Source: a virus
Strand: one strand, 5' to 3'
Length of the DNA: 64,000 nucleotides
IMG/VR virus record: IMGVR_UViG_3300022927_002861
Coordinates: 4,554-68,553 of that record
Shown: positions 31,691 through 49,082 of the stretch, one piece after another
Layout of the letters: the number at the start of each line of letters is the position of its first letter
How positions within the stretch are numbered: the stretch's first letter is position 1
Made by a program: the position numbers and the translations under genes
Notes under the pieces: generated by a model
Seen by the model: only the letters and a program-made list of their open reading frames with translations
Database searches by the model: none
What the model was told of the DNA's origin: nothing

Positions 31691-34230
31691 ATAATTTCTT
31701 AACTAATTTTTCGAGTTATAAAGGTTGTTGTCCTCCTGGGGTCAGGCTTCCCACAATAGTCATTGATGACAAACATTTAAATAATTTAAATTTAAAAAAA
31801 GATGTTTCTAATTTTGGTTTTTTAAAGTTTCTTTGCGAAAAAACTCTATTTAAAAAATCTTTAGATAAAAATCCTGCTTACACAGATAGATTAAAATACG
31901 AATTAGAAATTTTAAATGAATTAGGTTTCATAGATTATGTATTGTTGAATTGGGACATTCTTAATTTTTGCCATGAAAATGATATCCCAACTGGTCCTGG
32001 AAGAGGGTCTGCTGCGGGTTCTTTAGTCTTATTCTTAATAGGAGTTACTAAAGTAGACCCTATAAAATATGATCTATTTTTTGAAAGATTTGTTTCTAAG
32101 AGTAGGGCTAAAAAAATAAAAGAAAATGGCATCACATATTTAGATGGAGGGCTCTTGGCAGATGTTGATAACGACATAGCTTATGAACATAGACCTAAAG
32201 TAATACAATATATTGAAAACAAGTATCCAGGAAAAACCGCAAAAATACTTACTCTTAATACATTGAGTGGCAAACTTTGTGTTAGGGAATGTGGTAAAAT
32301 ATTCAGCATGTTTTCCGAAGAAAAAGTGAATTTGATTAGTGACATGATTCCAAAAGAATTTGGTCAGGTCATGAAACTTTCTTTAGCATATGATTCAAGT
32401 CTAAAGTTTAAAAAGGTTATGGATGAAAACCCAGAGTTATACAAAATTTCATTGAAGCTCGAGGGTTTGAATAAAAATACGGGAGTTCATCCTTCTGGAA
32501 TTGCTATATCTCATGATGATATAGACTCTATTTGCCCAATACAAAAAACTAATGATGGATCGGTTGTAACTGGCTATGATATGAATTGGGTTGCAGAGCT
32601 TATGGTTAAATTTGACATCCTAGGACTTCGCACTCTTTCTATTGTTTACTCTACTTGCGATCAAGTTGGGATAGACCCAATACAAATATCATTAGATTCC
32701 GAATCTATTTATTCAAATTTACAAAACTTAAATCAGCCACACGGCTTATTTCAAATAGAAGCTAATACAAATTATTCTGTATGTAAAAAAATCAAACCCA
32801 ATAACCTTGAATCTTTAAGTGCTGTTATAGCCTTGGCTAGGCCAGGAGCAATGGATTTCGTAGAAAATTATAGAAGATATATTAATACTGGCGATTTCCA
32901 AAGCATCAACCCCTTTTACGACGATGTGTTATCTTATACTGGAGGTATACCTTTATATCAAGAGCAGTTAATGAAAATGGCTGTTAAAGTAGGCTTCACA
33001 TTAGAAGAGGCTGAGTCTCTAAGAAGGATAGTTGGTAAGAAAAAAGTTGACCAAATGCCAGAGTGGAAGTCTAAAATAGAATATAAAATCAAAAATAATA
33101 ATCTAGACCCTGTTATTGGAGATATTTTATGGAAAGTTGCCGAAGACAGCGCTAATTATTCTTTTAATAAAAGTCATTCTATATCTTATGCTATATTAGC
33201 CGCATGGACATGTTATCTCAAATTTTCTCACCCTCAAGAGTTTTTCTTGAGCCTTTTGAAAATGACTTCTTTTGAACCCAATCCACAGGAAGAGATATCT
33301 AAAATAAGTCAAGAGTTATTGCATTTCGGAATAGAACTTTTGCCCCCAGATTTAGCTAAATCATCTATGGATTTTAAGATCGAAGGGTGCAATATTAGAT
33401 ATGGCTTAAATAGCATAAAAGGCATTAGTTCTAAATCTCTTGAAAACTTAAAAGACTTCATTGATTCCGACACTCCAAATAAATACGACATTTTCCTATC
33501 TGCTAAATCTTCAGGCCTTAACATTGGTGTATTATCTTCTTTGATTCAAGCTGGAGCATTATCTTCATATAAAACAAATCGCCCTAGGTTGGTTTTAGAG
33601 GCTCAAGTTTTTAATTTATTAACAGACAGGGAAAAGAGAAATTTTTGTTTTTTGGGAGGTAAACATAAACATGATATACTCAATGCTATTCATGATGCAG
33701 TTACTAATGAAATCAAAGGAGACGATGGAAAACACATAATGAAATCCTCCCGTTTTGAAACTATAAAAAAGAAGTATGCTAAATATAAATTGATATATGA
33801 ACAAAACAAAAATTATGAAAAATTTGCAAATTGGTATTTTGAGTATACTCTTTTGGGTTTTTCCTATAGTGTTAGATTGAAAGATTGCTTTAGTTCTAAT
33901 AAAAGTCTTCAAGATAGTTTGTTTCTTCAAAGCGCTGAAATAAACTCAAAGAATAAATATATAGGTATAGTTACCGACTGTTTTTCTGGAAAAAGTAAAA
34001 ATGGAAACGATTATTTTAAAATGGATATAAGTGATGAAACAGGATCTTACAGCGCTCTTTTTGTCGATGGCAGAGATAAAAACCTTTCTAAGTACAAAGA
34101 AAAATCTACATTACCAGATAAAGGAAGTATTGTTGTTATTCTTGGGACTAAATCAGAAGAGATTGTTTTCGTTGAAAATCTTTCAAAGCTTGATGAGAAA
34201 ATATATATGAAACTTTCTGATTTAAAATAA
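31672..34230 (+). CDS. dnaE: DNA polymerase III alpha catalytic part (DnaE lacking most of PHP)
   Basis: 'GPGRGSAAGSLV', 'LFFERF', 'DVDND', 'GVHPSG', 'KFDILGL', 'LYQEQLM', 'YSFNKSHS', C-terminal OB-like region. Confidence 0.95.
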   Translation: MANRDINNFLTNFSSYKGCCPPGVRLPTIVIDDKHLNNLNLKKDVSNFGFLKFLCEKTLFKKSLDKNPAYTDRLKYELEILNELGFIDYVLLNWDILNFCHENDIPTGPGRGSAAGSLVLFLIGVTKVDPIKYDLFFERFVSKSRAKKIKENGITYLDGGLLADVDNDIAYEHRPKVIQYIENKYPGKTAKILTLNTLSGKLCVRECGKIFSMFSEEKVNLISDMIPKEFGQVMKLSLAYDSSLKFKKVMDENPELYKISLKLEGLNKNTGVHPSGIAISHDDIDSICPIQKTNDGSVVTGYDMNWVAELMVKFDILGLRTLSIVYSTCDQVGIDPIQISLDSESIYSNLQNLNQPHGLFQIEANTNYSVCKKIKPNNLESLSAVIALARPGAMDFVENYRRYINTGDFQSINPFYDDVLSYTGGIPLYQEQLMKMAVKVGFTLEEAESLRRIVGKKKVDQMPEWKSKIEYKIKNNNLDPVIGDILWKVAEDSANYSFNKSHSISYAILAAWTCYLKFSHPQEFFLSLLKMTSFEPNPQEEISKISQELLHFGIELLPPDLAKSSMDFKIEGCNIRYGLNSIKGISSKSLENLKDFIDSDTPNKYDIFLSAKSSGLNIGVLSSLIQAGALSSYKTNRPRLVLEAQVFNLLTDREKRNFCFLGGKHKHDILNAIHDAVTNEIKGDDGKHIMKSSRFETIKKKYAKYKLIYEQNKNYEKFANWYFEYTLLGFSYSVRLKDCFSSNKSLQDSLFLQSAEINSKNKYIGIVTDCFSGKSKNGNDYFKMDISDETGSYSALFVDGRDKNLSKYKEKSTLPDKGSIVVILGTKSEEIVFVENLSKLDEKIYMKLSDLK

Positions 34231-36662
34231 TGAAAGGTTATAACGTAACCCCTAGGGTCAAAAAAATCATTGCATTATCAGTGGATACTGCTGATAGCCT
34301 CAATAGTGAACATGTAGATTTAGATCATTTACTATACTCTGTCTTAGATTCCGAACAAGTGATCGTATCTAGATTTTTTGAAGACTTAAATATGTCTTTA
34401 GGAGATATAAAGATATTCGTTTTTAATTCAATTAAGGGCGAGTTGTTTGATAATGAAGATATTGGCCGCCCTTCATTCTCAAAAGATTTTAAAAAAATTT
34501 TCTCAAATGCCAAATCTCTCTCAAGTTCATTAAAGCATGGCTACATAGGCATAGAACATATCTTTTATTGCTTGTTAGTTTATGAAAGATCTCCATTGCC
34601 TGATATTCTCAAAAATTTTCATGTCAATGTAGATAAGGCTAAAGAAAAATTTCAATTATTCTTCAAGACTGGAGAGTGGCTAGATTCTAAGATTTCAAAA
34701 AAATCAATTAAAAAAACTTCTCCCCAAGATGAATTACTACCAGATCAGACTTCTTCTTTCTTATCAAGTTATGCCATAAACTATAATGAACTCGCTCTTA
34801 ATAATGATTTTGATCAAGTTATATCAAAGGAAAATGAGATAATAAAAATTTCTGAAATTTTATGTAGAAGAAATAAAAGTAATGTAATATTAGTTGGAGC
34901 TCCAGGCACAGGCAAGACTAGTTTAGTTGAAGGTTTAGCACAATCCATAGTCAACGGAACTTGTACTAATTTTTTAAGCAATAAAATTATATACGAATTA
35001 GATTTGGCTAGCTTAATAGCTGGGACTAAATATCGAGGTCAATTTGAAGAAAGGTTAAAAAATTTAGTCAACGAAGTTGAAGACAATAAGAATATTATTC
35101 TTTTTATTGATGAAATTCATACTTTAGTTGGTGCTGGTAGTGCTGAAGGCAGTATGGATGCAGCCAATATACTAAAACCAGCTTTAGCAAGAAATAAAAT
35201 TAAATGCATTGGAGCTACCACGCATAAAGAATTCAGAAAACATATATCGAAAGATTCAGCGCTCGAACGAAGGTTTGAAACAATTAAGATTGAAGAGCCT
35301 AACAGAAGGGCTACTTTGGAAATTATCAATGGAGTTATTTCTCAATACGAGAAGTTTCATCATGTAAAATATCGCAAAAATGCTATTGAATTAGCTGTTG
35401 ATTTATCCATTAGATACATTAATGATAAACAGTTACCAGATAAAGCTATTGATATTATAGATCAAGCTGGAGCCAGAGTCAAAATTCATAATTTCCACAA
35501 ACCTAAAAAAGCTATAAAACTTGAAAAAGATATAGAAGATTTAATGTTATTGGAAGATGATTCCGAATGCCCTAAAGAAATAAAAAAAATTAAATTGCTT
35601 CAAGACAAAGCTATTGATAAATATAAAAAAATAATTAGTCAATGGAGTAATCAGTACTCTCAGCAATCTTTCTTTGTCACTAAAGAGGATATTTACAATG
35701 TGATTTCTTCCAGAACAGGAGTTCCAATTAATAATATTTCCGCAAATGAAAAGTTTAATTTTTTAGATTTATCTAAAAAAATTAAAAGCGAAGTCTATCT
35801 TCAAGATGATGCCATAAATGCAGTTTGCGACTGTATTTTAAGATCTAAAACAGGGTTTTCTGACTCCAATAGGCCTCTAGGCTCTTTTCTTTTTTTAGGT
35901 AAAACTGGAGTTGGGAAAACTCATCTTTCTAAATCTTTGGCTTTTAATCTTTTTGGCGGGTATGAAAATTTCATACAAATAGATATGGCTGAGTATTCTG
36001 AAAAAATGAATTTATCTAAATTAATCGGTGCATCGCCAGGATACGTAGGTTATGATGAGGGGGGTCAACTTACGGATAGAGTGAAAAACAAGCCTTATTC
36101 CGTAGTTTTATTTGATGAAATCGAAAAAGCACACCCAGATGTGGTCAATATATTACTTGGCTTACTAGAGGAAGGTAGGATTACTGATAGCTTCGGAAGG
36201 GTTTGTGATTTTTCTAATTGTTTAATCATCATGACTGGCAACATAGGAGCAAATCTCCTTTCAAAAAAAAGGAACAATGTCGGGTTTATTAATTCCACAT
36301 CAGAAGATTTAGAAAATGAAATACTCGATGAAGCTAAAAGAAAATTGAGTCCTGAATTAATAAATCGAATTGATGATGTTATCGTATTCAAAGATTTTAA
36401 AGAGTCAGACATTCATTCTATTGTGCAAAAGCATTTGTCAAAATTAATTAAAGACGTTAAATCAAAACATAATGTTATTTTAGATATTGACCCTGACGTC
36501 TCTGATGAAATATCAAAAAAAGCTTACAAAGAATCTCTTGGAGCGCGACCGATCAGAAGAATCATACAAAAAACTATTGAAAACCATGTTTCCAGACTTA
36601 TCATATCTAGTGATATTAAACAGATTAAAATCGATAAAAAATTAATTATAAATAATGAGTGA
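34230..36662 (+). CDS. clpC: ClpC/ClpA-type AAA+ unfoldase
   Basis: Tandem Clp-N repeats, 'GAPGTGKT', 'GTKYRGQFEERL', 'LFIDEIH', 'GKTGVGKT', 'PGYVGY', 'LFDEIEKAHP', ClpP-docking 'VGF' loop, 'GARP'. Confidence 0.93.
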   Translation: MKGYNVTPRVKKIIALSVDTADSLNSEHVDLDHLLYSVLDSEQVIVSRFFEDLNMSLGDIKIFVFNSIKGELFDNEDIGRPSFSKDFKKIFSNAKSLSSSLKHGYIGIEHIFYCLLVYERSPLPDILKNFHVNVDKAKEKFQLFFKTGEWLDSKISKKSIKKTSPQDELLPDQTSSFLSSYAINYNELALNNDFDQVISKENEIIKISEILCRRNKSNVILVGAPGTGKTSLVEGLAQSIVNGTCTNFLSNKIIYELDLASLIAGTKYRGQFEERLKNLVNEVEDNKNIILFIDEIHTLVGAGSAEGSMDAANILKPALARNKIKCIGATTHKEFRKHISKDSALERRFETIKIEEPNRRATLEIINGVISQYEKFHHVKYRKNAIELAVDLSIRYINDKQLPDKAIDIIDQAGARVKIHNFHKPKKAIKLEKDIEDLMLLEDDSECPKEIKKIKLLQDKAIDKYKKIISQWSNQYSQQSFFVTKEDIYNVISSRTGVPINNISANEKFNFLDLSKKIKSEVYLQDDAINAVCDCILRSKTGFSDSNRPLGSFLFLGKTGVGKTHLSKSLAFNLFGGYENFIQIDMAEYSEKMNLSKLIGASPGYVGYDEGGQLTDRVKNKPYSVVLFDEIEKAHPDVVNILLGLLEEGRITDSFGRVCDFSNCLIIMTGNIGANLLSKKRNNVGFINSTSEDLENEILDEAKRKLSPELINRIDDVIVFKDFKESDIHSIVQKHLSKLIKDVKSKHNVILDIDPDVSDEISKKAYKESLGARPIRRIIQKTIENHVSRLIISSDIKQIKIDKKLIINNE

Positions 36663-37170
36663 TACTAAAATAAATAAATGTGTTTTAACCGTGGATAAAA
36701 CAGGCAAAGTCTATGAATACTTTGAGGCTCAAGACGAAAATCCTATTCAAAAAGTTAAATTTGCTTACCCAGGCGATTTAGATAAGCTTGTCGAAACTAT
36801 TTCTAATTCAAATCTATCAATACCCGAAGGTTCTAAATTCTCTATTTCTTTCAATGAAAAAAATGAAGTTGTAGCCTTGTCGTTAGTTTCCGATGATGCT
36901 CCAGAATTTACTCAGATGCTTTTCGAAAGCAAAGAAGAGGCCGATAATGAGATATACTGTAAAGGATACAAACCTTCATATGCTATAATGCCTCCAGAAG
37001 TTAAGAATTTATTAGACAATTTCTTTGGTGGAGTTATATGTTTTTTTGATGGTTATCAAGACTTATACTCTTCTTTTATTCAAGAAATCGAAAGGGCAGA
37101 ACCTAAAAAATACCCACTTATTAAATCCTTGTATGAAGATAAGGTTTTAGAAAAAATTCTTAACAAATAA
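36655..37170 (+). CDS. Hypothetical protein
   Basis: 171-aa ORF overlapping the clpC stop. Confidence 0.6.
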   Translation: MSDTKINKCVLTVDKTGKVYEYFEAQDENPIQKVKFAYPGDLDKLVETISNSNLSIPEGSKFSISFNEKNEVVALSLVSDDAPEFTQMLFESKEEADNEIYCKGYKPSYAIMPPEVKNLLDNFFGGVICFFDGYQDLYSSFIQEIERAEPKKYPLIKSLYEDKVLEKILNK

Positions 37171-37174
37171 TATT

Positions 37175-37783: not shown

Positions 37784-37788
37784 AGGCT

Positions 37789-39699
37789 ATGTCGTTAAGA
37801 AAAAAAAAGATATTATTCCATAGCAATTATTCTAAGATATTAAGTGGTTTTGGCAAAAATGCTAGAAATATACTTCGTCATTTAGCTCGTACTGAAAAAT
37901 ATGAAATTGTCGAATTGAGTAATGGTGTCGCAGGTTCTCACCCCGAATTATCTAAACTTCCCTGGAAGGCTATTGGCGGCTTACCTAGTGACCAAAGTAA
38001 ATTGCAAAAAATTAATAAAGATCCTAATTTGAGTAGGTCAGCTCAATACGGTTCAATGGTTATAGATGACGTCGTTAAGTCCGAGAAGCCAGATATTTAT
38101 ATAGGTGTCGAAGATATATGGGGAGTTGGAGATAATGTTAAAAAACCTTGGTGGAATAAAATAAACTGTATGGTTTGGACGACTTTAGATAGTCTTCCTA
38201 TTTTGCCACAGGCAATAAATTTAGCTCCTAAAATAAAAAACTATTATGTTTGGGCTTCTTTTGCTGAAAGAGCGCTCAAAGAGAAAGGCTACGATCATGT
38301 AAAGACATTGCACGGAGCTTTAGATGTTTCTAATTTTTACAAATTAGAATCTGAAGTAAAACAAGGGTTGAGATCTAAATTTGGATTGGATCAAGATTCT
38401 TTTATTATTGGCTTTGTCTTCAGAAACCAATTAAGAAAAAGTGTGCCCAACCTATTAGAGGGTTTCAAACTTTTTAAAGATGATCAGCCTAAAAGCAAAG
38501 CAAAGCTTTTGCTTCATACTAATTTTGCAGAGGGTTGGAATATAGAAGACTTAATTAAAGAAAAAAACCTAGATCCTCAAGATATTCTTTGCACATATTA
38601 CTGTCCAAAATGTAAAAATTACGAAATCAAACCTTTTTCAGGCCAGAGTTTAGATTGCAAATTTTGTGGCTCTAAAAAATCTCAAAATACTGTCAATATA
38701 TCTTCTGGTGTAAATGAGAAGCAGCTAAATGAAATATATAATTTAATGGATGTTTATTGTCATCCTTTTACATCTGGAGGTCAAGAAATACCGATTCAAG
38801 AAGCTAAGTTAACAGAGTTGATAACTTTAGTCACTAATTATTCTTGCGGAGAAGACTGCTGCAGCAATGATAGCGGAGGTTTTCCGCTTGATTGGGCTGA
38901 ATATCGAGAGCCTGGCACTCAATTTATTAAGGCTAGCACATTTCCTTCAAGTATTTTTAAAAATTTAAAAAAGATTTTTAAAATGGATCTTTTGAAAAGG
39001 GCTTCTTTAGGAAAAAAGGCTAGAGAATTTGTCATCAATAATTACTCAATTGAAGTCATTGGCAAACATCTAGAATCTATCATAGATGAAATGCCAGATA
39101 TTGATTATAATTTTGATTTTACGCCTGAAAAAAGAGATCCCAACTACATTCCTCCACAAATTGATTCTAACTCAGAATGGTTAATAGATATTTATAAAAA
39201 TATATTAAAAGTAGATTTAGATAGCAATGACCCAGGACACAAGCATTGGATGTCTCGTCTTAAAGATGGAGCTTCTAGAGAATCTATTATTAATTATTTT
39301 AGATCTGTAGCTGTCGAAGAAAACAAAAAACAAGAACCCTCGCAGGTGGATTTTGATTTAGTTATATCGAATGATGGCGATAAAAAAGCTTTATTCGTCT
39401 GTAATAGTTCTGTCGAAGATGTTTTGTTAGTTACATCTTTATTGCCTTCTTTTCATAAACAAAACCCTGGTTTCGATGTGTTTTTCGCAACTCATAAGCA
39501 GATTCATGCAATTATAGGCTCCAATCCTCATATATATAAATGTATTGACTATCAAAAAGAAATGGGCGATGAATTAATTATGATTAAATCAGCCAAAAGT
39601 CAAGGTTATTTCGATTTGTATTATAATTTCGATAAAATTAGTTCTGACGATTTTGGTCTCTTAAGCATTGAAAATAAAATTTTTAAAACATATGAATAA
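37789..39699 (+). CDS. Multidomain GT4 glycosyltransferase with Zn-ribbon insert
   Basis: 'SGFGK', 'FRNQLRKSVP', CPKC..CKFC insert, 'YNLMDVYCHPFTSGGQEIPIQEA'. Confidence 0.8.
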   Translation: MSLRKKKILFHSNYSKILSGFGKNARNILRHLARTEKYEIVELSNGVAGSHPELSKLPWKAIGGLPSDQSKLQKINKDPNLSRSAQYGSMVIDDVVKSEKPDIYIGVEDIWGVGDNVKKPWWNKINCMVWTTLDSLPILPQAINLAPKIKNYYVWASFAERALKEKGYDHVKTLHGALDVSNFYKLESEVKQGLRSKFGLDQDSFIIGFVFRNQLRKSVPNLLEGFKLFKDDQPKSKAKLLLHTNFAEGWNIEDLIKEKNLDPQDILCTYYCPKCKNYEIKPFSGQSLDCKFCGSKKSQNTVNISSGVNEKQLNEIYNLMDVYCHPFTSGGQEIPIQEAKLTELITLVTNYSCGEDCCSNDSGGFPLDWAEYREPGTQFIKASTFPSSIFKNLKKIFKMDLLKRASLGKKAREFVINNYSIEVIGKHLESIIDEMPDIDYNFDFTPEKRDPNYIPPQIDSNSEWLIDIYKNILKVDLDSNDPGHKHWMSRLKDGASRESIINYFRSVAVEENKKQEPSQVDFDLVISNDGDKKALFVCNSSVEDVLLVTSLLPSFHKQNPGFDVFFATHKQIHAIIGSNPHIYKCIDYQKEMGDELIMIKSAKSQGYFDLYYNFDKISSDDFGLLSIENKIFKTYE

Positions 39700-40843: not shown

Positions 40844-41585
40844 ACCAAATTTTAAAATAAATTACTCTAGAGACCAAAACGGTCTTATTGAAAATGTAAA
40901 TTACCAATTTAACGACGATGGCTCAATCAATTGGCGAGCGATGGTTAAAGACGAACATTTATTTCCTAATCGCAGCTGGTTCGATTCTAGAAAAAAAACA
41001 TGCCCCAAAAGTATAGATGGCTTAGAAGACCATCAGTTGCTTATTAAATTATCTGGGATCAAAGAGTTGGCTAAACTTAGAGGTTTTACTGAAGTGAAAT
41101 ATGATTTTATTAAATGCGAACAGGATCATGTTGCTACAGTTTGCTCCATCATGTTTATACCAAACTATGAAACAATTAATCAGCCCGTCTTGTTCCAAGA
41201 TTCAGCTAACGCCACACTTAATAACACAAGCAGTTTTGCGACTAAATTTTTAGAGACTATAGCTTGCAATAGGGCGTTTGTCAGGTGTGTTAGAAATTTT
41301 TTAAATGTACATATTGTTGGCGACGATGAAATAGATAAATCTAATTCATCAAATATGCTTAACGACTCTCAAGGATCTGACTCCTTATCTCCGAACAACT
41401 TATTGAAACAACAGGCTTTCAAATGTGGTTATAATGATTTTGATTCTTTCATGAACTTATTAAGGTCCTGGCACAATAATGGAAAATATTTAATGCCCTC
41501 TAGCGCGGACCCTAAATCTTGGAATGATTTTTCAGACATACCAGCAAAGCAGGCTAGAGAATTTTTAAAATTAATTAAGGAATAA
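40836..41585 (+). CDS. Putative Rad52/RecT-like single-strand annealing protein
   Basis: 'LIKLSGIKELA' and 'ETIACNRAFVRCVRNFLNV..VGDDEI' helix pattern. Confidence 0.45.
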   Translation: MTKPNFKINYSRDQNGLIENVNYQFNDDGSINWRAMVKDEHLFPNRSWFDSRKKTCPKSIDGLEDHQLLIKLSGIKELAKLRGFTEVKYDFIKCEQDHVATVCSIMFIPNYETINQPVLFQDSANATLNNTSSFATKFLETIACNRAFVRCVRNFLNVHIVGDDEIDKSNSSNMLNDSQGSDSLSPNNLLKQQAFKCGYNDFDSFMNLLRSWHNNGKYLMPSSADPKSWNDFSDIPAKQAREFLKLIKE

Positions 41586-41616
41586 CCCCACACGGTATCA
41601 ATTAATTATTTTAATT

Positions 41617-42153
41617 GTGAATATTTTAAATAAAACCAAAACTTATTTGGTCGGGCATATGCAGTATTTAAATGGTCGAAATTGGAGAGAAGAAGTTTCC
41701 TCTAAATTAGAGCCGATAGGTATAACATGTTTTGATCCTTATAAAAAGCCTTTTGTTAAAGATGTTGATGAAAGTGAATCTGCGCGTGAAGACATGGAAA
41801 CATGGTCTAAAAACGAACAATATGATCTTTTGACCAATAAAATGAAAACCATTCGGTCTTATGATCTAAATTTAGTTGATCGTTCAGATTTTATCATAGC
41901 TCATCTTGTCCCTGATGTTGCCTCATGGGGAAGTGCGGAAGAGATAGTCACTGCCGTACGCATGAAAAAACCAATTTTTATAAGTATGCAGGGCGGTAAA
42001 ACCAAAACTCCATTATGGTTATTTGGAATGATTCCTCATAAATATATATATAATTCTATTTCTGAAATTATTGATATGATTTATTTTATAAATTCAGGTC
42101 GAAAAGAAATTGACTCAGATAGATGGAGACTTTTGCAAGAAAAATATAGATAA
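41617..42153 (+). CDS. Nucleoside 2-deoxyribosyltransferase-like / nucleotide hydrolase
   Basis: 'YLVGHM', 'NWRE', 'FDPY', 'DLNLVDRSDFIIA', 'SWGSAEE', 'KKPIF'. Confidence 0.7.
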   Translation: MNILNKTKTYLVGHMQYLNGRNWREEVSSKLEPIGITCFDPYKKPFVKDVDESESAREDMETWSKNEQYDLLTNKMKTIRSYDLNLVDRSDFIIAHLVPDVASWGSAEEIVTAVRMKKPIFISMQGGKTKTPLWLFGMIPHKYIYNSISEIIDMIYFINSGRKEIDSDRWRLLQEKYR

Positions 42154-42167
42154 AAATATAGATAAAA

Positions 42168-42746
42168 ATGTACAGTTTATCTAATAAATTTATTTTTTTT
42201 CACCCTGGTCGGAGTGGAGGGACTTCTATTAAAAAATTTCTTGCTCAAAATTTTAAAGACTGCACGAGGTGTGGTCACAAAAGTCTATCACACATTGAGC
42301 GTTTAGTTAGTGATGCTGGCTACAATCCACATGAATTTAAAAAAATAACCTGCGTTAGAAATCCTTGGGATCGAATGGTTTCTAATTATTTCCACACATT
42401 AAAGCACAATAAAATTCCCGAAACTCATTTGCTTATTCAAATCAAAAACTTTAGAGAAAATTTAAGAGCTATCTTGCAAGATAGACCCATGACAGACAAT
42501 CTCTACCATAACTTTTTCCCTAATTATGAAGATTTTGATTTTGTTGTGAGGCTTGAAAATATTCATAAAGATATGAAATCTTTATGTGAAATTCTATGTA
42601 TTGATTATATTTTTTTAGACAAATCCAATTCCTCTAATCCAGGAATTCCTTATAATCTTTTTTACGATAAAGAATCTAGCGAATTAATAGAAAAGTATTT
42701 TTATAGATGCATTGAGAAGTTTGACTATAAATCACCTGATTACTAA
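42168..42746 (+). CDS. Sulfotransferase (Sulfotransfer_2-like)
   Basis: 5'-PSB-like 'FHPGRSGGTSI', 3'-PB 'VRNPWDRMVSNY', 'DFVVRLENI'. Confidence 0.8.
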   Translation: MYSLSNKFIFFHPGRSGGTSIKKFLAQNFKDCTRCGHKSLSHIERLVSDAGYNPHEFKKITCVRNPWDRMVSNYFHTLKHNKIPETHLLIQIKNFRENLRAILQDRPMTDNLYHNFFPNYEDFDFVVRLENIHKDMKSLCEILCIDYIFLDKSNSSNPGIPYNLFYDKESSELIEKYFYRCIEKFDYKSPDY

Positions 42747-43040
42747 ATAATTTAATTGGCTAATTATTTTTTGATAATTAGAATAATTAATTCTATTCAC
42801 ATTGATGTTTCCTCTTTCTTTTCTCAAGGAAATTCCTTCTACTGTATATGTTCTCACAAAATCTTCGACAAAATCTAAAGCGCATTTATCCTTCAGCCAT
42901 TTATAATAAAAGTCCCTTTCTTCTCGCAAACATTCTATAACTATTTCTTGATTTAAAAATGTTTTTGCATGTAAAGTTATGTCTCTAAATAAAGTCACTT
43001 CGCTGGGCGGAGCTGTAAGTTCTGCATAAATCACTAACAT
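42732..43040 (-). CDS. Hypothetical protein (one of few minus-strand genes)
   Basis: 102-aa ORF filling a gap with no + strand gene. Confidence 0.65.
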   Translation of the reverse strand: MLVIYAELTAPPSEVTLFRDITLHAKTFLNQEIVIECLREERDFYYKWLKDKCALDFVEDFVRTYTVEGISLRKERGNINVNRINYSNYQKIISQLNYLVIR

Positions 43041-43060
43041 TAATAGACTTATTTAAATTC

Positions 43061-43088
43061 TTGTGTACTATATATAGTATATACACAA
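43061..43088. promoter_or_regulatory. Palindromic element with two inverted GTGTA motifs between divergent genes
   Basis: TTGTGTA-CTATATATAGTATA-TACACAA; inner perfect palindrome TACTATATATAGTA at 43066-43079. Confidence 0.55.
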
Positions 43089-43098
43089 AAGTTTTATT

Positions 43099-43305
43099 AT
43101 GAATCGTCATGAAATAGATTTTAGTTTAGAAATTGAAAAAGCTATAGTAGAATCAGAAGCAGAGCGCAAAGGTTTGTGGCACAATATTAGAGAAAAGAGA
43201 AAGAGAGAAGGTAAAAATTATCGCCCAGCAAAGCTTGGAGATAAAGATCGCCCCGATCCAGAAGCATATAAAAAAGCACAAGAGAAAAAACCAAAAGCTG
43301 ATTAA
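43099..43305 (+). CDS. Small basic hypothetical phage protein
   Basis: 'KGLWHNIREKRKR..PAKLGDKDRP'. Confidence 0.65.
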   Translation: MNRHEIDFSLEIEKAIVESEAERKGLWHNIREKRKREGKNYRPAKLGDKDRPDPEAYKKAQEKKPKAD

Positions 43306-43307
43306 AA

Positions 43308-44240
43308 ATGAAAAAAATATTAGTCACTGGAGGATTAGGCTTCATTGGCTCTAATTTCATCAAGCATATCTTTAACAAGTATGACTATGATATCAACAAT
43401 GTTGATGTTAAAACATATGCAGCAAACTACAATAACATCAGCGAAGAAATTAATCAATCAGGTAGATACAGTTTATCAATTTGTGATATAAATGACACAG
43501 ATCGACTTCGCAATTTAATACAAAAAAACAATATAAACTATATTGTCAATTTTGCCGCAGAGAGCCATGTAGATAATAGTATAAATGACTCAACCCCTTT
43601 TGTTCAGGCCAATATAAATGGAACTCATTCCTTATTAAGTTTGCTTCACGATTGTCCCAGTATCGAGAGATACCTTCAAGTGTCCACAGACGAGGTATAT
43701 GGCAGTTTAAGGGAAGAGGATGATGCTTTTACCGAAAACACTCCATTGCAAGCAAATAGCCCCTATTCAGCAAGCAAGGCGAGTGCAGATTTATTATGTC
43801 GCAGTTTTTATGAGACTTTCGATTACCCTATTTTAATTACTCGCTGTTCAAACAATTACGGACCAAATCAACACGAAGAAAAATTAATTCCATTAATGAT
43901 TAAAAATGCTAAGGCAGGCAAAAAACTTCCTGTTTATGGTGATGGTAGAAATATTCGTGACTGGATTCATGTTTCAGATCATTGCTCTGGTATCGATGCA
44001 GTATTACATGGTGGGAAAATTGGTGAAGTTTACAATATCGGTGGCAAAAATGAAGTTCGTAACATTGACATAGTAAAAACCATTCTAAATCTTTTAGATA
44101 AAGATGAAGATCAAATAGAATTCGTAAAAGATAGATTAGGTCACGATTGGCGTTATGCAATTGATAATACTAAAATTCAAAACGAATTAAATTGGTTTCC
44201 AAGTGTAGATTTTGAAGACGGATTAAAACAATTATTATGA
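43308..44240 (+). CDS. rmlB: dTDP-glucose 4,6-dehydratase
   Basis: 'TGGLGFIGSNF', 'FAAESHVDNSI', 'VSTDEVYG', 'SPYSASKA', 'NNYGP', 'DRLGHDWRYA'. Confidence 0.95.
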   Translation: MKKILVTGGLGFIGSNFIKHIFNKYDYDINNVDVKTYAANYNNISEEINQSGRYSLSICDINDTDRLRNLIQKNNINYIVNFAAESHVDNSINDSTPFVQANINGTHSLLSLLHDCPSIERYLQVSTDEVYGSLREEDDAFTENTPLQANSPYSASKASADLLCRSFYETFDYPILITRCSNNYGPNQHEEKLIPLMIKNAKAGKKLPVYGDGRNIRDWIHVSDHCSGIDAVLHGGKIGEVYNIGGKNEVRNIDIVKTILNLLDKDEDQIEFVKDRLGHDWRYAIDNTKIQNELNWFPSVDFEDGLKQLL

Positions 44241-44671
44241 ATAAAGAAATAGTAGGATTTACAGCGGGAAATTTTGATTTATTGCATCCAGGTTATATTT
44301 ATACTTTTGAAGAAGCAAAACGACATTGTGATCGTTTTTTAGTGTTTTTACAGAAAGATCCAAGTGCTACACGATTCACAAAATATAAGCCTGTCATACC
44401 ATACTACGAACGCTACAAAGCATTAATGGCTATAAAATACATAGACGAAGTATATATGTATCAAACAGAAGAAGAGCTGGTTGACTTAATCAAATTTTGG
44501 AAACCTGATGTTCGCATACTTGGGGAAGATTATATTGGTAAAAGTTTTACGGGGGATGATCTTCCTCCTCGTGTAATATATACTACTCGCTCACATGAAT
44601 GGTCAACCACTCGACTTAAAGATTTAATTACCAAACAAACAATCAAACAAAACCCCGATATCTTAAAATAA
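44237..44671 (+). CDS. Cytidylyltransferase (TagD-like)
   Basis: 'GNFDLLHPGY', 'YIDEV', 'LGEDY', 'RSHEWSTT'. Confidence 0.85.
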   Translation: MNKEIVGFTAGNFDLLHPGYIYTFEEAKRHCDRFLVFLQKDPSATRFTKYKPVIPYYERYKALMAIKYIDEVYMYQTEEELVDLIKFWKPDVRILGEDYIGKSFTGDDLPPRVIYTTRSHEWSTTRLKDLITKQTIKQNPDILK

Positions 44672-44673
44672 TT

Positions 44674-45204
44674 ATGGCAGGAATAAGTACAGACAAAGAA
44701 AAACTAAATTGCACTCTAGAAAAAGCTTGCAGTATTTTACACAAAAACGACATCAATGATTGGTTTATATTTTTTGGCACGTTACTTGGAATTGTTAGGG
44801 AAAATAGTTGCATACAAGGAGATGATGATTTAGACATCATGATCAATTGCGATTATCAAAAATTACGTTCTGCGTTTGAGGCAGAAGGTTTTAGATTTAC
44901 TTCTAGATTTGGCATTAAAAACCCAGATACAATTTTAAAAACAGAGCCTTGTGATAAATATGCATCTTTTGATTTCTATATGTGTAATGTAAACGAATCT
45001 GGAGATTTTCATACACCCTGGCATGGAGTTGTCTCAACCGACTCTTATGTAAATGTAGACACTAAAACTTTTATATATAAAGAATGGTCATCAACAGTTC
45101 TTCAATTGCCTAACAATTATGAGAGTAAAGTAATAAACATGTATGGTTCTAACTGGAAAGTTCCACGATCTGGATCTTGTAGAATGCACATAGGTAAAGT
45201 TTAA
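44674..45204 (+). CDS. LicD-family phosphotransferase
   Basis: 'FGTLLGIVRE..IQGDDDLDI', 'YGSNWKVP'. Confidence 0.85.
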   Translation: MAGISTDKEKLNCTLEKACSILHKNDINDWFIFFGTLLGIVRENSCIQGDDDLDIMINCDYQKLRSAFEAEGFRFTSRFGIKNPDTILKTEPCDKYASFDFYMCNVNESGDFHTPWHGVVSTDSYVNVDTKTFIYKEWSSTVLQLPNNYESKVINMYGSNWKVPRSGSCRMHIGKV

Positions 45205-45205
45205 A

Positions 45206-45868
45206 ATGGATAAACAATATTGGGATAAATTTTATAAAAATTTCTCGCTTAGAAAAGATATATCTGAATGTAGCACTTTTGCTAGTTTTTGTTGTGATAA
45301 TTTTTTCCACAAAGAATCAAAAACAATTGTAGATCTTGGTTGCGGAAATGCAAGAGATGCACTGTTCTTTGCAGAACAAGAGCATTATGTTTTAGCTGTA
45401 GATCAATCAATAGATGATAAAGTTAAAGCACAAAAATCTCATATTAATCTTGATTTCTTGGAATCGGATTTTATTCGCCCGAAATACTACTTTGATGATG
45501 GAGAAACTTCTTATTATCATCCAACTGCTAATAAAATTGATGTTTTTTATTCTAGATTTACAATTCACTCAATCACACAGGAAGATCAAAAAGAATTATT
45601 GCCTAAAGTTTATAATCTCTTAGATACGGGAGGGTTGTTTTGTATTGAAGTTCGCACAACCAAAGATCCAAAATTTGGAGTAGGTAACCATATATGTGAC
45701 ACAACATATTTTAACGATGGACACACTCGTAGATTCGTAGATTCACAAAAATTTTTAAATACAGTTTTATCTCTTGGATTTAAATTACTTTATTTTAATG
45801 AGCGAGGCAATTTGTCTATCTATAAAGATGATAATCCTGTTTTAATGAGAATAATTTTAGAGAAATGA
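45206..45868 (+). CDS. Class I SAM-dependent methyltransferase
   Basis: 'YWDKFY', 'VDLGCGNARDA', 'YSRFTIHSI', 'GGLFCIE'. Confidence 0.85.
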   Translation: MDKQYWDKFYKNFSLRKDISECSTFASFCCDNFFHKESKTIVDLGCGNARDALFFAEQEHYVLAVDQSIDDKVKAQKSHINLDFLESDFIRPKYYFDDGETSYYHPTANKIDVFYSRFTIHSITQEDQKELLPKVYNLLDTGGLFCIEVRTTKDPKFGVGNHICDTTYFNDGHTRRFVDSQKFLNTVLSLGFKLLYFNERGNLSIYKDDNPVLMRIILEK

Positions 45869-46377
45869 TTAGTGGTAAATATTCATATGGCAACCCTGAA
45901 CACATTCCATTGAGGGGAGGTTCATATACAATAGGGTCTTTTTGCTCAATAGCTAATGGTGTAAAAATACACACAGGCAAAGGAGGTCACAGAACAAATT
46001 ATGTATCAACTTATCCTTTTGGCTTTATTCATCGAAACAAATTTCCTAATGATACTAACAAGCAGTTGCTAGACGATCAAGGGGATGTAACAATAGGGAA
46101 TGACGTATGGATAGGTCAAAATGCTACTATAATGTCTGGAGTCACTATTGGGGATGGAGCGGTTATTGCAAACAATAGTCATGTTGTAAAAAATGTAGAT
46201 CCCTATGCTGTGGTTGGTGGAAACCCTGCTCAACTAATAAAATATCGATTCAGCAATGACATTATCGATAAACTATTAGAAATTAAATGGTGGGAATGGT
46301 CTGACGAAAAAATCAAAGAAAATATTAATCTTATATGTTCTCCAGATATATATAAATTTATAAAATCATGTACATAA
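45865..46377 (+). CDS. Hexapeptide-repeat O-acetyltransferase (CatB/Vat-like fold)
   Basis: 'IGSFCSIA', 'IGNDVWIG', 'GVTIGDGAVI', 'VVGGNPA', 'IKWWEW'. Confidence 0.88.
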   Translation: MISGKYSYGNPEHIPLRGGSYTIGSFCSIANGVKIHTGKGGHRTNYVSTYPFGFIHRNKFPNDTNKQLLDDQGDVTIGNDVWIGQNATIMSGVTIGDGAVIANNSHVVKNVDPYAVVGGNPAQLIKYRFSNDIIDKLLEIKWWEWSDEKIKENINLICSPDIYKFIKSCT

Positions 46378-46395
46378 TAAAGTGTAATATGGTGT

Positions 46396-46935
46396 GTGGA
46401 GCTTTGCAATAATACACCAGCTATAAAATGTTTTTTAAGGAGAGAATTTGTCTCCAACTCTGAAAACATACCCGATCATTTAAATTGTGTAATTTTCGGC
46501 GTTCACACAATTAAAAATCAAGCTATGACATTCGTAGCTATGATTGAAAATGGAGCAGTATATACAAAGCTACCCTTACATGCCTTTTGTTGGCTCAAGA
46601 AAGCTCCACAAAGAGACTTATCATTCTTAATGACTTACGACTCATTCAGCTACTCTAATAGCGTTATTGAATACGATTACCTCAAATATATGAATTGTAA
46701 GTTTTTTGATGACAATAAAGAATTTCATCATGGTCAATATATGTTTACTCTAGAACCTTATGGCTCAGATCGTGCAGAAGACCCAAAGTTTTACAAACCA
46801 TTTCATTTTATCAAATTAAACGAGGGCAATTTTGCCGCGCAACCAACAAATAAGATCATATGGGATGACCATATAGTAAATGATAGTGTAAAATTTATAC
46901 CTAAACCTAATACAGAAATATATAATGTAGAATAA
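46396..46935 (+). CDS. Hypothetical phage protein
   Basis: GTG start 9 nt after GTGTA; 'GAVYTKLPLHAF', 'GNFAAQPTNKIIW'. Confidence 0.65.
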   Translation: MELCNNTPAIKCFLRREFVSNSENIPDHLNCVIFGVHTIKNQAMTFVAMIENGAVYTKLPLHAFCWLKKAPQRDLSFLMTYDSFSYSNSVIEYDYLKYMNCKFFDDNKEFHHGQYMFTLEPYGSDRAEDPKFYKPFHFIKLNEGNFAAQPTNKIIWDDHIVNDSVKFIPKPNTEIYNVE

Positions 46936-46980
46936 AAAGAAAAGATTTTTAAAATAGAATTAAAAGGTTATAAATTTTAA

Positions 46981-47061
46981 ATGAAAATCGCAACATTAGG
47001 TAGCCGTCAAGCAATGTCACTAAATTGGTATGTACATCAATTTCCTTTTGGAGAAAATTGA
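46981..47061 (+). pseudogene. Truncated 5' remnant paralogous to the gene at 49083
   Basis: MKIATLGSRQAMSLNWYVHQFPFGEN* versus MKIATLGSCQAMISSWYIRQLFP; DNA nearly identical over the first 36 nt. Confidence 0.75.
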
Positions 47062-47738
47062 TGAACTTTGTTTACTATCATTATTATTGCACGGAATTAT
47101 CTTTTGATATTTTACTGCAAACTTTAAATTCCATCAAGCAATCGGAATTGTATGATAATATTGAGTCCATTACAATTAATATTACGGGAGATAATAATAG
47201 CGATCATTATTTCAAAATCAAAGAGAAAATTTGTCCCAACTTCAAGAAAGTAAGTCTAGTAAAATTTAGAAGCTTAGAATTACAAAAATACATGAATTCC
47301 TTCTCGGATCTTGAAATAAAAAACAACTATAGACTGAGCATAGGTAAAAAAGGTGATGAATTAGATACCTTAAAATATTTACACTCAGATATTGTTACCC
47401 ATAACTTAGATGGCAATGTTTTATACTTGCACGGCAAGGGCTCTGTTCATACAAGCTACTTTGCTCATAAAAAAATGGATCGAGAACAATGGAGATTAGA
47501 AATGATTGAATTTGTAATTCAAAAATGGCAAACATGCATTCAGTCACTAAAAACAAAACCCCACACAGGTATAAATTTTACTGGTGATCATTACAGTGGT
47601 AATTTTTGGTGGGCGACTGGTGAACATATTAAAACCTTACAATGTCCAATCGAGTATGTGAAATCTAATAAATTTTCAGAGTGCAAATTAAAACAATCTC
47701 CACATTATAGTGCAGAGTACTGGTTGTGTTCACTATGA
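47061..47738 (+). CDS. Putative glycosyltransferase-like protein
   Basis: 'ELDTL', 'VLYLHGKG', 'HYSGNFWWA', 'AEYWL'; ATG overlaps the remnant's TGA. Confidence 0.6.
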   Translation: MNFVYYHYYCTELSFDILLQTLNSIKQSELYDNIESITINITGDNNSDHYFKIKEKICPNFKKVSLVKFRSLELQKYMNSFSDLEIKNNYRLSIGKKGDELDTLKYLHSDIVTHNLDGNVLYLHGKGSVHTSYFAHKKMDREQWRLEMIEFVIQKWQTCIQSLKTKPHTGINFTGDHYSGNFWWATGEHIKTLQCPIEYVKSNKFSECKLKQSPHYSAEYWLCSL

Positions 47739-47748
47739 AAAAATTATA

Positions 47749-48543
47749 ATGAAAATATTTTATGACCATGTTATTTCTAAGCAAGCTGATACAGACTTTA
47801 ATTATACTCTAATTTCTGCTTGGGTTGATAGTGGTGAAGAGGATGAAGCTCTAGCTACGGGTTGGTTACCTACTTACTTTTATACTGATGATTGTGAATT
47901 TTCGAAAGAGAGCGAGGTAAATAAACGTCAAATTTGGTGTCAATTAAGAAGCACAAGAATCGAGTGTGAAAAGTTTCGCGCAAAAAGTAAGCATTTAAAA
48001 GCATTAAAATTAGAAAACTTTAAGTATCAAATAATAGAACAAAAAGACATATATGGAGATTTAAATGTTCTATCTACCCTTTATCAAATATACAATAAAT
48101 ATGTCGCCTACAAAAATTATAAAGACATACTAGATAAAGATGGTTTTATTAAACATATAATTGATGATAGTAGTCATTTTATTTTATTTATGATTGATGA
48201 TAGAATTGTAGCTTGTACTGCGATGCAACAATTTGGTAATAGTTTTGTTTCGGGATTGTTTTTTTGGGACTATGCAAATAAAGAGTTGTCTCTAGGAAAT
48301 TTATCTAATCATCTCGAAGTTGAACTTTCAAGAAAGCATGGTTTCAAATATTTATATATCGGTGTGTATAGCGAAATACCTTCTCAATACAAATCGTACA
48401 TCAAAGGAGTACAAGTTTGGACAGGAAGAAAATGGCTATCAAATAAACGACAATTAATAAATATCGCACAGAATGACTCCAACAGTAATACGTTAGAAGA
48501 TTTTGTAGATTACGATAAATTTCAAAAACTACTTGAATTTTAA
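47749..48543 (+). CDS. ATE1/Bpt-like aminoacyl-tRNA-protein transferase
   Basis: 'ALATGW', 'RSTRI', 'FFWDY..LSLG..EVELSRKHGFKYLYIG..YKS..VWTG.KW' match the ATE C-domain pattern; start set at ATG 47749. Confidence 0.72.
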   Translation: MKIFYDHVISKQADTDFNYTLISAWVDSGEEDEALATGWLPTYFYTDDCEFSKESEVNKRQIWCQLRSTRIECEKFRAKSKHLKALKLENFKYQIIEQKDIYGDLNVLSTLYQIYNKYVAYKNYKDILDKDGFIKHIIDDSSHFILFMIDDRIVACTAMQQFGNSFVSGLFFWDYANKELSLGNLSNHLEVELSRKHGFKYLYIGVYSEIPSQYKSYIKGVQVWTGRKWLSNKRQLINIAQNDSNSNTLEDFVDYDKFQKLLEF

Positions 48544-48561
48544 TTGTTTATTTGATATACT
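48533..48561 (+). promoter_or_regulatory. Sigma70-type promoter of tmRNA
   Basis: TTGAAT-17 nt-TATACT with TGn, 23 nt before the mature 5' end. Confidence 0.65.
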
Positions 48562-48584
48562 ATTATAGTTCTTTAAAATTTTAC

Positions 48585-49026
48585 GGGCGTGTACTGGATT
48601 TGATTTAATTCTGATCAATATGCTGCAAGTCGGAGATGTGTCTGGCTCCGATATCAAGACACAAAAGCTATATATGGCGAAGGTTATTATAGCATTGAAG
48701 AGCTTCTCGAAGCTGCTCGCGAAGAGTACGACAACCTCGTGCAATTCGAGCAAGCTGAAGAGCTTGAGATGGTAGCTTAAAGACTACCCCCTCACAACTT
48801 TTGACGCAGATAAAAGGATTGTGGGGTCATCAATCTGCAAAACAGATAAAAGTTTATCCGTTTCAAAAACTGCACCACTGAGTATTCGGGGGCCTCAAGT
48901 TTGAGTGAATAATTGAAATGGTTAGTTGGATGTTTATATCATAACTCTAAAAAAAATAAACTAAACTTGTAGATGTATATTTTTGAAGCTTTAAAGACAG
49001 CGGTTCGACTCCGCTCACGTCCACCA
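48585..49026 (+). ncRNA. ssrA: tmRNA (transfer-messenger RNA), one-piece, 442 nt
   Basis: 5' GGGCGTG pairs with 3' CACGTCC-A-CCA including G3.U70; T-arm AGCGG-TTCGACT-CCGCT; PK1 (CGGAG/CTCCG and GTGTCT/AGACAC); tag ORF ends in a GGTAG/CTACC hairpin. Confidence 0.96.
48676..48780 (+). other. tmRNA tag reading frame (A)GEGYYSIEELLEAAREEYDNLVQFEQAEELEMVA*
   Basis: Resume codon GGC follows PK1 with UA at -5/-4; TAA lies in the helix-5-like loop. Confidence 0.8.
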
Positions 49027-49082
49027 TTTTCATGTGTATTATAATATAATACAATCAAATCTAAAACCACATAAAAACAACT

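Follow-up and report, generated by a model that had tools for sequence, protein, structure and literature searches.

ATE1 and Bpt transferases act on protein N-termini, the terminal LAA of a transfer-messenger RNA (tmRNA) tag is read by ClpX, and a VGF-type tripeptide is a ClpP-binding motif. Counterparts of such components were predicted to lie together on a stretch of viral DNA of 64,000 nucleotides (positions 4,554 to 68,553 of IMG/VR record IMGVR_UViG_3300022927_002861; hereafter the window, in whose numbering coordinates are given), where an ATE1/Bpt-like gene, a tmRNA gene with an atypical tag and a clpC gene were proposed to form a single phage system of protein tagging and proteolysis. 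Phage tmRNAs and phage Clp ATPases (PHROG 4871) are already known. One survey counted 402 tmRNA-bearing genomes among 18,146 phage genomes and put forward translation maintenance or selective tagging of host proteins as possible roles (PMC9004378). A literature search whose scope excluded supplements and subscription journals found no publication on phage ATE/Bpt-like enzymes or on a tmRNA tag derived in the manner described below.

ARAGORN, Rfam and Pfam placed all three genes where the original prediction had them. Their arrangement is probably explained by three separate units, namely a dnaE-clpC pair, a tmRNA gene and a mobile cassette of two genes that includes the ATE-like transferase. 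These would share no system, and their proximity would not reflect coupling; they would be neighbors since all three lie in a plastic region downstream of the replication genes. The features that make up the units are as follows.

47749..48543, + strand: ATE_C-only aminoacyl-tRNA-transferase-like protein of 264 amino acids (Pfam ATE_C, Foldseek, family survey)
46396..46935, + strand: 'PurM-like' partner protein of the phrog_3704 family (PHROG 3704 at E 8e-35; no Pfam domain)
48585..49026, + strand: one-piece tmRNA of the long type (ARAGORN and Rfam RF00023)
48676..48780, + strand: tag reading frame, 34 codons and a stop (resume codon by homology with sister tmRNAs; substitution pattern)
34230..36662, + strand: full-length ClpC-type AAA+ unfoldase of 810 amino acids (Pfam, PHROG 4871, PDB, motifs)
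31672..34230, + strand: DnaE-type DNA polymerase III alpha subunit (Pfam DNA_pol3_alpha, finger, HHH_6)

Distances and co-occurrence of the three genes

The ATE-like gene stops at 48543 and the complete tmRNA starts at 48585, which leaves the predicted gap of 41 nt. Relatives of the window are IMG/VR viral contigs of 36-206 kb. Among them the same distance is 1.4 kb in G003, with two open reading frames (ORFs) between, and 36, 29 and 26 kb in G002, G006 and G017, respectively, so that the two genes stand 26-36 kb apart outside the subclade of the window. The ATE-like profile matched 2 of the 16 records that bear the window tmRNA backbone; the 14 records without the gene include the ClpC-bearing G012, which is 93% complete. 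G008 has the same long-tag tmRNA, located upstream of its replication genes; its contig of 45 kb, of which 21 kb lie downstream of ClpC, contains no ATE-like gene. In the wider family, ARAGORN found a tmRNA within 10 kb of the ATE-like gene in none of 87 loci, and the Rfam cut-off for tmRNA was reached in 2 of 31 whole records searched with Infernal (of 80 viral loci, 32 had contigs of at least 20 kb, from which L066 was subtracted). The 41-nt spacing would be the result of a lineage-specific rearrangement and not a sign of coupling.

Comparison of the window with G002 revealed 98% identity for the partner and 96% for the ATE-like protein, while ClpC was 40% identical; the ORFs between and after the pair differed. 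Because the pair is 96-98% identical while ClpC is only 40% identical, partner and ATE-like gene move horizontally as a cassette. Homology ends at the ATE-like stop codon.

In the integrated system of the original prediction, the ATE-like enzyme would mark N-termini, the tmRNA would mark C-termini, and phage ClpC on host ClpP would read both marks. This proposal draws on the 41-nt gap, on the ATE1-like fold of the transferase and on the presence of all three genes in the window, G002, G003, G006 and G017. It also draws on a second phage lineage, in which a Clp-like ATPase stands 0.3-1.8 kb from the ATE-like gene in all eight records that have one. Set against the distances and absences given above, against the movement of the cassette independently of ClpC, against the lack of a ClpS match in five of five relatives and against the loss, described below, of the Cys cluster and of the Arg for acidic N-termini (kept in 0 of 66 proteins of the family), an integrated system is very unlikely. 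The Clp protein of the second lineage, moreover, consists of N-domain and D1 only, without the D2 region that bears the ClpP loop. The independent distribution in relatives that had been named as evidence against such a system is largely seen for the ATE-like gene and is not seen for ClpC with the tmRNA, which recur together.

Models for SmpB (PF01668), ClpP (PF00574, CLP_protease) and ClpS matched nothing in five of five related records (G002, G003, G006, G008 and G012), three of which are 93-100% complete. In control genomes the same models recovered SmpB (PF01668) in 10 of 14 and ClpP (PF00574) in 12 of 14. Of the window ORFs, ∼38 were compared with Pfam, PHROGs or NCBIfam; none of these encodes any of the three proteins, and no MecA-, McsB- or ClpP-like gene was recognized among them.

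The Clp-like ATPase of the second lineage comprises 458-500 amino acids and lacks D2 and hence the ClpP loop (L056, with Clp at 4284-5768, and L057, L058, L060, L061, L063, L065 and L069). The gene order in all eight of these records is DnaE, the N-domain and D1 Clp, an ORF of 69 amino acids, a variable ORF and the ATE-like gene. This order is most simply explained by shared ancestry, because the window has the same DnaE-Clp start.

Several points weigh against the reading of three separate units. The window and G003, which form the nearest subclade, both keep the ATE-like gene ahead of the tmRNA, and wherever a genome with the ATE-like gene is complete enough to judge, as in these five, the other two genes are present as well (window, G002, G003, G006 and G017). 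The Clp ATPase close to the ATE-like gene in the second lineage could mark a Clp-transferase link instead of shared ancestry. In addition, the first AlphaFold2 (AF2) model of the ATE-like protein is poor outside residues 70-205, and the RNA evidence considered below consists of contigs without transcript ends, from libraries in which DNA is possible. A loose functional relation of the three genes may still exist. Their co-occurrence carries little weight, however, because the genomes are related and ClpC and tmRNA are near-core in the group.

The ATE_C-only transferase and its partner

The ATE-like ORF starts with ATG; a GTG at 47710 would add 13 codons. Its product scored 39.4 bits against Pfam ATE_C (PF04377; cut-off 25) over residues 111-209, with no Pfam match to ATE_N and no PHROG match. 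Scores against the NCBIfam equivalogs for Bpt and arginyltransferase were 17-33 bits (best 33.1), below all of the respective cut-offs of 170-358. Two different family members used as tblastn queries gave no match to the ATE-like protein in GenBank phages.

Modeling and a fold search had been suggested as a check on the assignment. The AF2 model had a pLDDT confidence score of 65 and was good over residues 70-205. All of its Foldseek matches in the PDB were aminoacyl-tRNA-dependent transferases, with human ATE1 at the top (E 9e-9, template modeling score 0.59), followed by MprF, yeast and K. lactis ATE1, FemX, LFTR and Sbb17/Sba18 (E 3e-7 to 4e-5 for MprF, FemX, LFTR and Sbb17/Sba18). The predicted fold is thus that of an aminoacyl-tRNA-dependent transferase, with ATE1 as the best match, and the family profile likewise matched yeast ATE1 at E 5e-9.

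A profile search of 1.84 billion representative proteins returned 181 matches at E ≤ 0.001. The upper part of this list is a family of proteins of 225-265 amino acids with an N-terminal motif, MK.xFxH..G, and a C-terminal motif, GFE(W/F)WTG..W; true Bpt proteins, with GFRRSG and CxxCxxC, appeared only in the tail. Pfam recognized ATE_C in 67 of 95 aligned proteins, ATE_N in 11, Acetyltransf_6 in 8 and LPG_synthase_C in 1. A scan of IMG/VR with the family profile confirmed at least 516 of at least 600 candidate stretches, and the same profile run over one genome per species for 185,579 prokaryotic species confirmed 7, all of them on contigs of metagenome-assembled genomes. Rather than being a Bpt or an ATE1, the ATE-like protein belongs to a sister family of these enzymes that is virus-borne.

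Two reports on ATE1 allow the family to be compared with it residue by residue. In human ATE1, R56 lines the pocket for N-terminal Asp/Glu (R56E inactivates the enzyme), E387 and K419 belong to the arginine pocket and C26 to the zinc site (PMC11283454). The zinc cluster of yeast ATE1 is formed by C20, C23, C94 and C95 (PMC10115844), and the ATE_N Cys cluster, whether it holds Zn or Fe-S, is reported to be critical to how stable and functional the enzyme is and to its substrate cleft (PMC10115844, PMC11283454). Residues were mapped through an alignment of Bpt to human ATE1 and then an alignment of 66 family members with 13 proteins classed as Bpt-type by motif; the equivalent of human H303 was not reliably mappable by this route.

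The donor pocket is kept. Positions E190 and K215, which map to human E387 and K419, are conserved in 59 and 65 of the 66 family members, respectively; at the same columns Bpt has Gln in seven and Glu in three proteins, and Lys in 13 of 13. By contrast, the R56 column holds Arg or Lys in none of the 66 family members (Leu in 36, Ile in 10, Ala in 5, among others; L40 in the window) and Arg in 10 of the 13 Bpt-type proteins. Two further columns are Cys in all 13 Bpt-type proteins; in the 66 family members the first is Trp in 60 and Phe in 4, with no Cys, and the second is Ser in 26, Ala in 12 and Cys in 8. In these alignments the catalytic, tRNA-facing half is conserved and the acceptor-recognizing half exchanged. 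The proposed likeness to ATE1/Bpt accordingly holds for ATE_C and the donor-pocket residues and fails for ATE_N, the Cys cluster and the Arg at the R56 column. With neither the pocket Arg nor the Cys cluster, the writing of N-degrons on Asp/Glu is unlikely in the form first proposed. The more speculative idea that the tmRNA tag serves as the acceptor found no support; ATE1 and Bpt are enzymes of N-termini.

The transferase would most likely take an amino acid from aminoacyl-tRNA, because it retains the GNAT core together with the two ATE1 donor-pocket residues, Glu and Lys, and that amino acid may be basic, because the arginine-pocket Glu is kept where most Bpt have Gln. The half that binds metal and recognizes acidic N-termini is replaced, and for this reason the acceptor would be something other than N-terminal Asp/Glu. 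It would probably be defined together with the partner protein, or be the partner.

In two loci the ATE-like gene lies inside or right after a large tRNA array (L124, 1276-9248, and L139, 6988-16285, with 12 and 18 tRNAs, respectively). This setting is suggestive for a tRNA-dependent enzyme but concerns only 2 of 87 loci.

Of 91 loci with an ATE-like gene, 75 have the partner gene next to it; after dereplication at 80% identity this holds for 24 of 37 groups, and the median distance is 0. In most cases the partner immediately precedes the ATE-like gene, its stop codon overlapping the start of the latter, and sometimes it is convergent or directly downstream. Sixteen loci have no partner within 5 kb. 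The ATE-like gene is no more than ∼1 kb from a locus end in L001, L059, L117, L138, L141 and L142, and L027 and L028 have flanks of only 1.5 kb; the partner is truly absent in at least L111, L124, L137 and L139. All neighbor clusters, that of the partner included, were obtained with a simple ORF caller from the longest non-overlapping ORFs of at least 60 amino acids; the others were Clp-like proteins in 4 of the 37 groups, DnaE in 4 and a sugar-gene cluster that includes the window epimerase in 3.

These neighborhoods bear on whether the enzyme might instead work like FemX, MprF or Sbb17 and contribute to glycan tailoring by adding an amino acid to a non-protein acceptor, for example a lipid, a cell-wall precursor, a sugar or a sugar nucleotide. 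The ATE-like gene does lie at the end of the sugar-gene block of the window, Foldseek does match MprF, FemX and Sbb17/Sba18 as well, and the features by which ATE1 recognizes protein N-termini are missing. A non-protein acceptor is nonetheless distinctly unlikely: ATE1 is the best match in both sequence and structure, the partner is the only widely conserved neighbor across the 91 loci, and the collinear relative G003 keeps the cassette without the sugar genes at 42168-46377.

The partner family also occurs in 108 cultured phage records, where it stands without the ATE-like gene (61 Synechococcus, 16 Prochlorococcus, 14 Cyanophage, 6 Pelagibacter and 4 Flavobacterium, counted by the first word of the organism name). 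In phage HTVC008M it is located between nrdA and nrdB. GenBank names it 'PurM / phosphoribosylaminoimidazole synthetase' and RefSeq 'ferredoxin'; both names look like misannotations, because the protein has no Pfam match to either. A 252-amino-acid ORF that follows the partner in Flavobacterium phage immuto was considered as a divergent ATE-like gene and rejected at an hhalign probability of 5%.

The AF2 model of the partner is all-beta, with a pLDDT of 74.8. Foldseek gave no match at E ≤ 0.001, the best being tandem Tudor domains at E ∼0.05. VIA-align gave Z scores of 5.2-6.5 to Tudor, chromo and BAH barrels (residues 93-160 and 7-69), where the noise bar of the tool is ∼8. With all fold matches below threshold, a Tudor fold is not claimed. 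A search of the ESM Atlas returned only unnamed clusters, with scores up to 0.90. The predicted complex of the ATE-like protein with the partner had a score of 0.00, which speaks neither for nor against binding.

Taken further, and only tentatively, partner and ATE_C-only enzyme might constitute a virus-only two-component tRNA-dependent transferase, in which the partner replaces ATE_N for acceptor recognition or is itself the acceptor, the targets are not acidic N-termini and the amino acid comes from host aminoacyl-tRNA. Held with the same reserve, and separately from this, the tmRNA tag, which ends in MVA, might go unread by host ClpXP.

The tmRNA, its tag and ClpC

The window tmRNA scored 100.6 bits against Rfam RF00023 (gathering score 47) over model positions 1-374, and ARAGORN placed the same gene. 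Its tRNA-like 3' end reads ...GTCCACCA (...TCCACCA). In an alignment of 19 tmRNAs of the backbone, the sister tmRNAs resume at a GGC that follows a conserved ..ACAT. The homologous codon in the window is an in-frame GGC at 48676, 13 codons ahead of the one chosen by ARAGORN. The 21-residue tag given by ARAGORN is therefore probably too short, and by homology the tag would have 34 residues. It was rightly predicted to be atypical, being acidic (11 acidic residues, 1 basic) with the C-terminus ...EELEMVA; no canonical ALAA-type degron is present at its end.

This long-tag tmRNA type is common to four records (the window, G003, G008 and G016). Nine codons of the tag frame vary among the four copies, six synonymously and three, codons 1, 5 and 8, non-synonymously; within codons 9-34, all five variable codons are synonymous, and the RNA outside the tag differs by 8-20%. 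This substitution pattern indicates that the tag peptide is under purifying selection, and hence that translation of the tag takes place and that its sequence is of consequence. The tag is readable in 14 sister tmRNAs, each of which encodes 11-21 residues with an ALAA end, mostly basic; they include those of the ClpC-bearing G002, G004, G006, G012, G013, G015 and G017. The long tag is thus derived.

A 33-nt insertion (∼48862-48895), GC-rich and hairpin-like, is present in the pseudoknot region of the tmRNA in the window, G006, G008 and G016. Because G003 and the remaining sister tmRNAs lack it, its distribution does not follow tag type. ARAGORN found 8 of the 19 backbone tmRNAs that Infernal found and missed 11 (L004, L039-L041 and L043-L049), for which Infernal scores were 108-137 bits; surveys based on ARAGORN only will undercount phage tmRNAs.

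The tmRNA gene would form a unit with its own promoter-like site and a variable position among related genomes. The site is the following.

48552..48579, + strand: promoter-like site TTGATA, 16 nt, TAAAAT (10/12 match; ends 6 nt before the tmRNA)

Part of it falls in a sequence block that is conserved 5' of the tmRNA even though the surrounding genes differ, in three genomic contexts. Promoter-type sites number 15 in the region against 16.4 in shuffles, not above chance, and the site is only a hint. Simple insertion of the tmRNA at a conserved intergenic site was ruled out, the sequence 3' of the ATE-like stop being wholly different in the window, G002 and G003. Simple insertion of the sugar-gene block between clpC and the tmRNA was ruled out by the gene 3' of the window tmRNA, which is homologous to an ORF within the cassette of G002 and not to the gene 3' of the G002 tmRNA.

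Contigs identical to the window over 48594-48829 or 48594-48920 were present in four of four metatranscriptome runs (three samples, three studies) and span the whole long-tag frame. Their depths were 40, 70, 505 and 833, and those of contigs on the partner, the variable ORF next to it and the ATE-like gene were ∼2-7; contig depth can neither formally rank genes nor show transcript ends, and DNA may contaminate RNA libraries. The tmRNA is thus present in RNA libraries, in a way that suggests high abundance. Loose contig ends at 48790 belong to ALAA-tag sister tmRNAs in the same samples. Of the sampled words of 46396-49100, 81-95% occur in 13 DNA runs labelled salt marsh metagenome and 19-32% in seven metatranscriptome runs, four of which supplied the contigs above; marine runs contain small shares, which do not enter the analysis. 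The phage tmRNA would work with host SmpB and add the 34-residue acidic MVA tag to the products of stalled ribosomes.

The predicted ClpC is intact. Pfam identified Clp_N, AAA, AAA_lid_9, AAA_2 and ClpB_D2-small; PHROG 4871 matched at 741 bits; and S. aureus and B. subtilis ClpC in the PDB (3j3s, 6em8) matched at 606 bits over residues 6-799. Walker A motifs were found at 223 and 557, Walker B motifs at 290 and 625 and a GYVG pore loop at 604. The VGF tripeptide occupies residues 684-686 in D2, and all ten aligned phage ClpCs, which are 40-56% identical to each other, have [V/I/L]GF at this position. Phage ClpC would dock on host ClpP, and would have to do so, because the related records searched carry no ClpP.

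ClpC and tmRNA are both present in the window, G002, G003, G004, G006, G008, G012, G013, G015 and G017. The two might act as a pair without the transferase, the acidic MVA tag being a private degron or sorting signal read by phage ClpC and not by host ClpXP. In keeping with this, 7 of the 10 records have the tmRNA downstream of ClpC at a distance of no more than 12 kb (11.9 kb from the ClpC end in the window, 1.4 kb in G002 and directly after it, at 214-218 nt, in G006 and G017), the selected tag has lost its ALAA end, ClpC has a loop of the ClpP-docking type, and the tmRNA is found in RNA libraries. But ClpC accompanies ALAA-tag tmRNAs equally, the tmRNA lies upstream of ClpC in G008 and G015 and 73 kb away in G012, and the invariant neighbor of ClpC is DnaE. 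ClpC is not specific to the long tag, because ClpC-bearing sisters carry ALAA tags. A pair of this kind is possible but doubtful.

In every one of the ten records of the group that have ClpC, DnaE immediately precedes it, and in the window the dnaE stop and clpC start overlap at base 34230 (the adjacency spans 31672-36662 there and is seen also in L006, L007 and L029-L035). ClpC may be a member of the replication module. A role in phage DNA replication, by the remodeling or recycling of replication proteins and not the degradation of tagged ones, would fit this arrangement, the DnaE-Clp order in all eight second-lineage records and a window region that is otherwise a replication module. The [VIL]GF loop in all ten ClpCs argues for ClpP docking, although the two roles are compatible, and a replication role in place of degradation seems unlikely. 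In the separate-units reading preferred here, dnaE and clpC would simply constitute the first unit.

The Pfam matches of the DnaE ORF start at the NTPase domain, with no PHP domain reported. Two short ORFs upstream of it (30093-31052 and 31049-31690), conserved with dnaE in G008, might carry the missing part.

Genomic context and comparison with known systems

Two further features lie between ClpC and the transferase.

37789..46377, + strand: glycan/nucleotide-sugar block, variable (Pfam, PHROG, NCBIfam)
47025..47738, + strand: variable ORF that separates the ATE-like gene from its partner (unmatched in Pfam, PHROG and NCBIfam)

The variable ORF has a homolog at the same place in G003 (50% identity), and a different ORF occupies that place in G002. 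The block at 37789-46377 encodes glycosyltransferase-like, nucleoside deoxyribosyltransferase-like, sulfotransferase, epimerase/dehydratase, cytidylyltransferase, LicD, methyltransferase and hexapeptide acyltransferase proteins; it is genomic context, outside any tagging system. Its genes at 42168-46377 have no counterpart in the collinear G003. Glycan-type genes are dense both here and at 49687-50319, with a GDP-mannose-dehydratase-like epimerase, a methyltransferase resembling MduS and DXD glycosyltransferases, and one glycosyltransferase of the block weakly matches the TcdA/TcdB-type glycosyltransferase domain. The nucleoside 2-deoxyribosyltransferase-like gene at 41617-42153 is 70-75% identical across G002, G003 and G015 and lies directly 3' of the tmRNA in G002 and directly 3' of ClpC in G015; it is a better kept neighbor of the clpC region than the ATE-like gene is.

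The window has a GC content of 31%, and almost every ORF is on the + strand. It encodes ribonucleotide reductase subunits, a DnaB-like helicase, a primase, an exonuclease, a UvsX-like recombinase, a clamp loader, a sigma factor and a DNA methyltransferase; the sigma-factor-like gene (53061-53645) and the methyltransferase gene (51356-52417), both downstream, are collinear with G003. No structural gene was found among the window ORFs scanned, and positions 47000-49100 gave no DNA match in GenBank phages. Assignment of the window to a phage rests on its matches to reductase, helicase, primase, recombinase, clamp loader and sigma factor, together with IMG/VR relatives whose completeness was estimated by CheckV. 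The source lineage consists of uncultured phages of roughly 100-200 kb.

The third of the separate units would be the mobile cassette itself, comprising the beta-rich 'PurM-like' protein and the ATE_C-only transferase. Its interest lies in ATE/Bpt-like enzymes that are found almost only in viruses, with the tRNA-dependent core kept, the recognition half exchanged and the gene locked to one partner gene. The acceptor, once found, would reveal a new use of aminoacyl-tRNA outside translation and a function for a widespread marine phage gene, one carried under wrong names by the cultured cyanophage, pelagiphage and flavobacterial phage records mentioned above. The tag, tripled in length, turned acidic, deprived of ALAA and still selected, would be a natural experiment on the purpose that trans-translation tags serve in an infected cell.

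Among known systems, bacterial trans-translation, with tmRNA-SmpB, an ALAA tag and ClpXP/ClpAP, shares with the window a complete one-piece tmRNA with tRNA-like end, resume codon and tag frame. It differs in the tag, which in the phage is 34 residues long, includes 11 acidic residues and has EMVA in place of a terminal ALAA, and in the components around it, no phage SmpB, ClpP, ClpX-type or ClpS gene having been found in the relatives. The phage-borne ssrA genes already described, the two-piece tmRNA of OM43 phage Melnitz and those of pelagimyophages, are likewise comparable. In contrast to these, the window tmRNA is one-piece, its non-ALAA tag is much longer, its lineage also encodes ClpC, and Rfam noted no glutamine riboswitch in the window. 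Phage ClpC resembles B. subtilis and S. aureus ClpC in its N-domain, two AAA+ modules, pore loop and ClpP-loop-type tripeptide, with alignment over the full length, and differs from them in being encoded directly after dnaE.

The transferase shares its fold class with LFTR (Aat), FemX/FemABX, the lysyl-phosphatidylglycerol synthase MprF and Sbb17/Sba18, all of which match it more weakly than ATE1 does; at the sequence level, the single LPG_synthase_C match among the 95 aligned proteins is the only one that Pfam gave to enzymes of this group. The acceptors of enzymes of these types (lipid, peptidoglycan precursor or aminosugar) are not indicated by its conserved context. With ATE1 and Bpt it has in common the GNAT-type ATE_C, the SLG, YxYxG and YK motifs and the equivalents of E387 and K419. 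It departs from them in the missing ATE_N match, in the replacement of the CxxC cluster by W..S/A and in the absence of the Arg of G(F/W)RRSG, and the phage family is further set apart by being virus-borne, by N- and C-terminal motifs of its own and by its pairing with a second protein.

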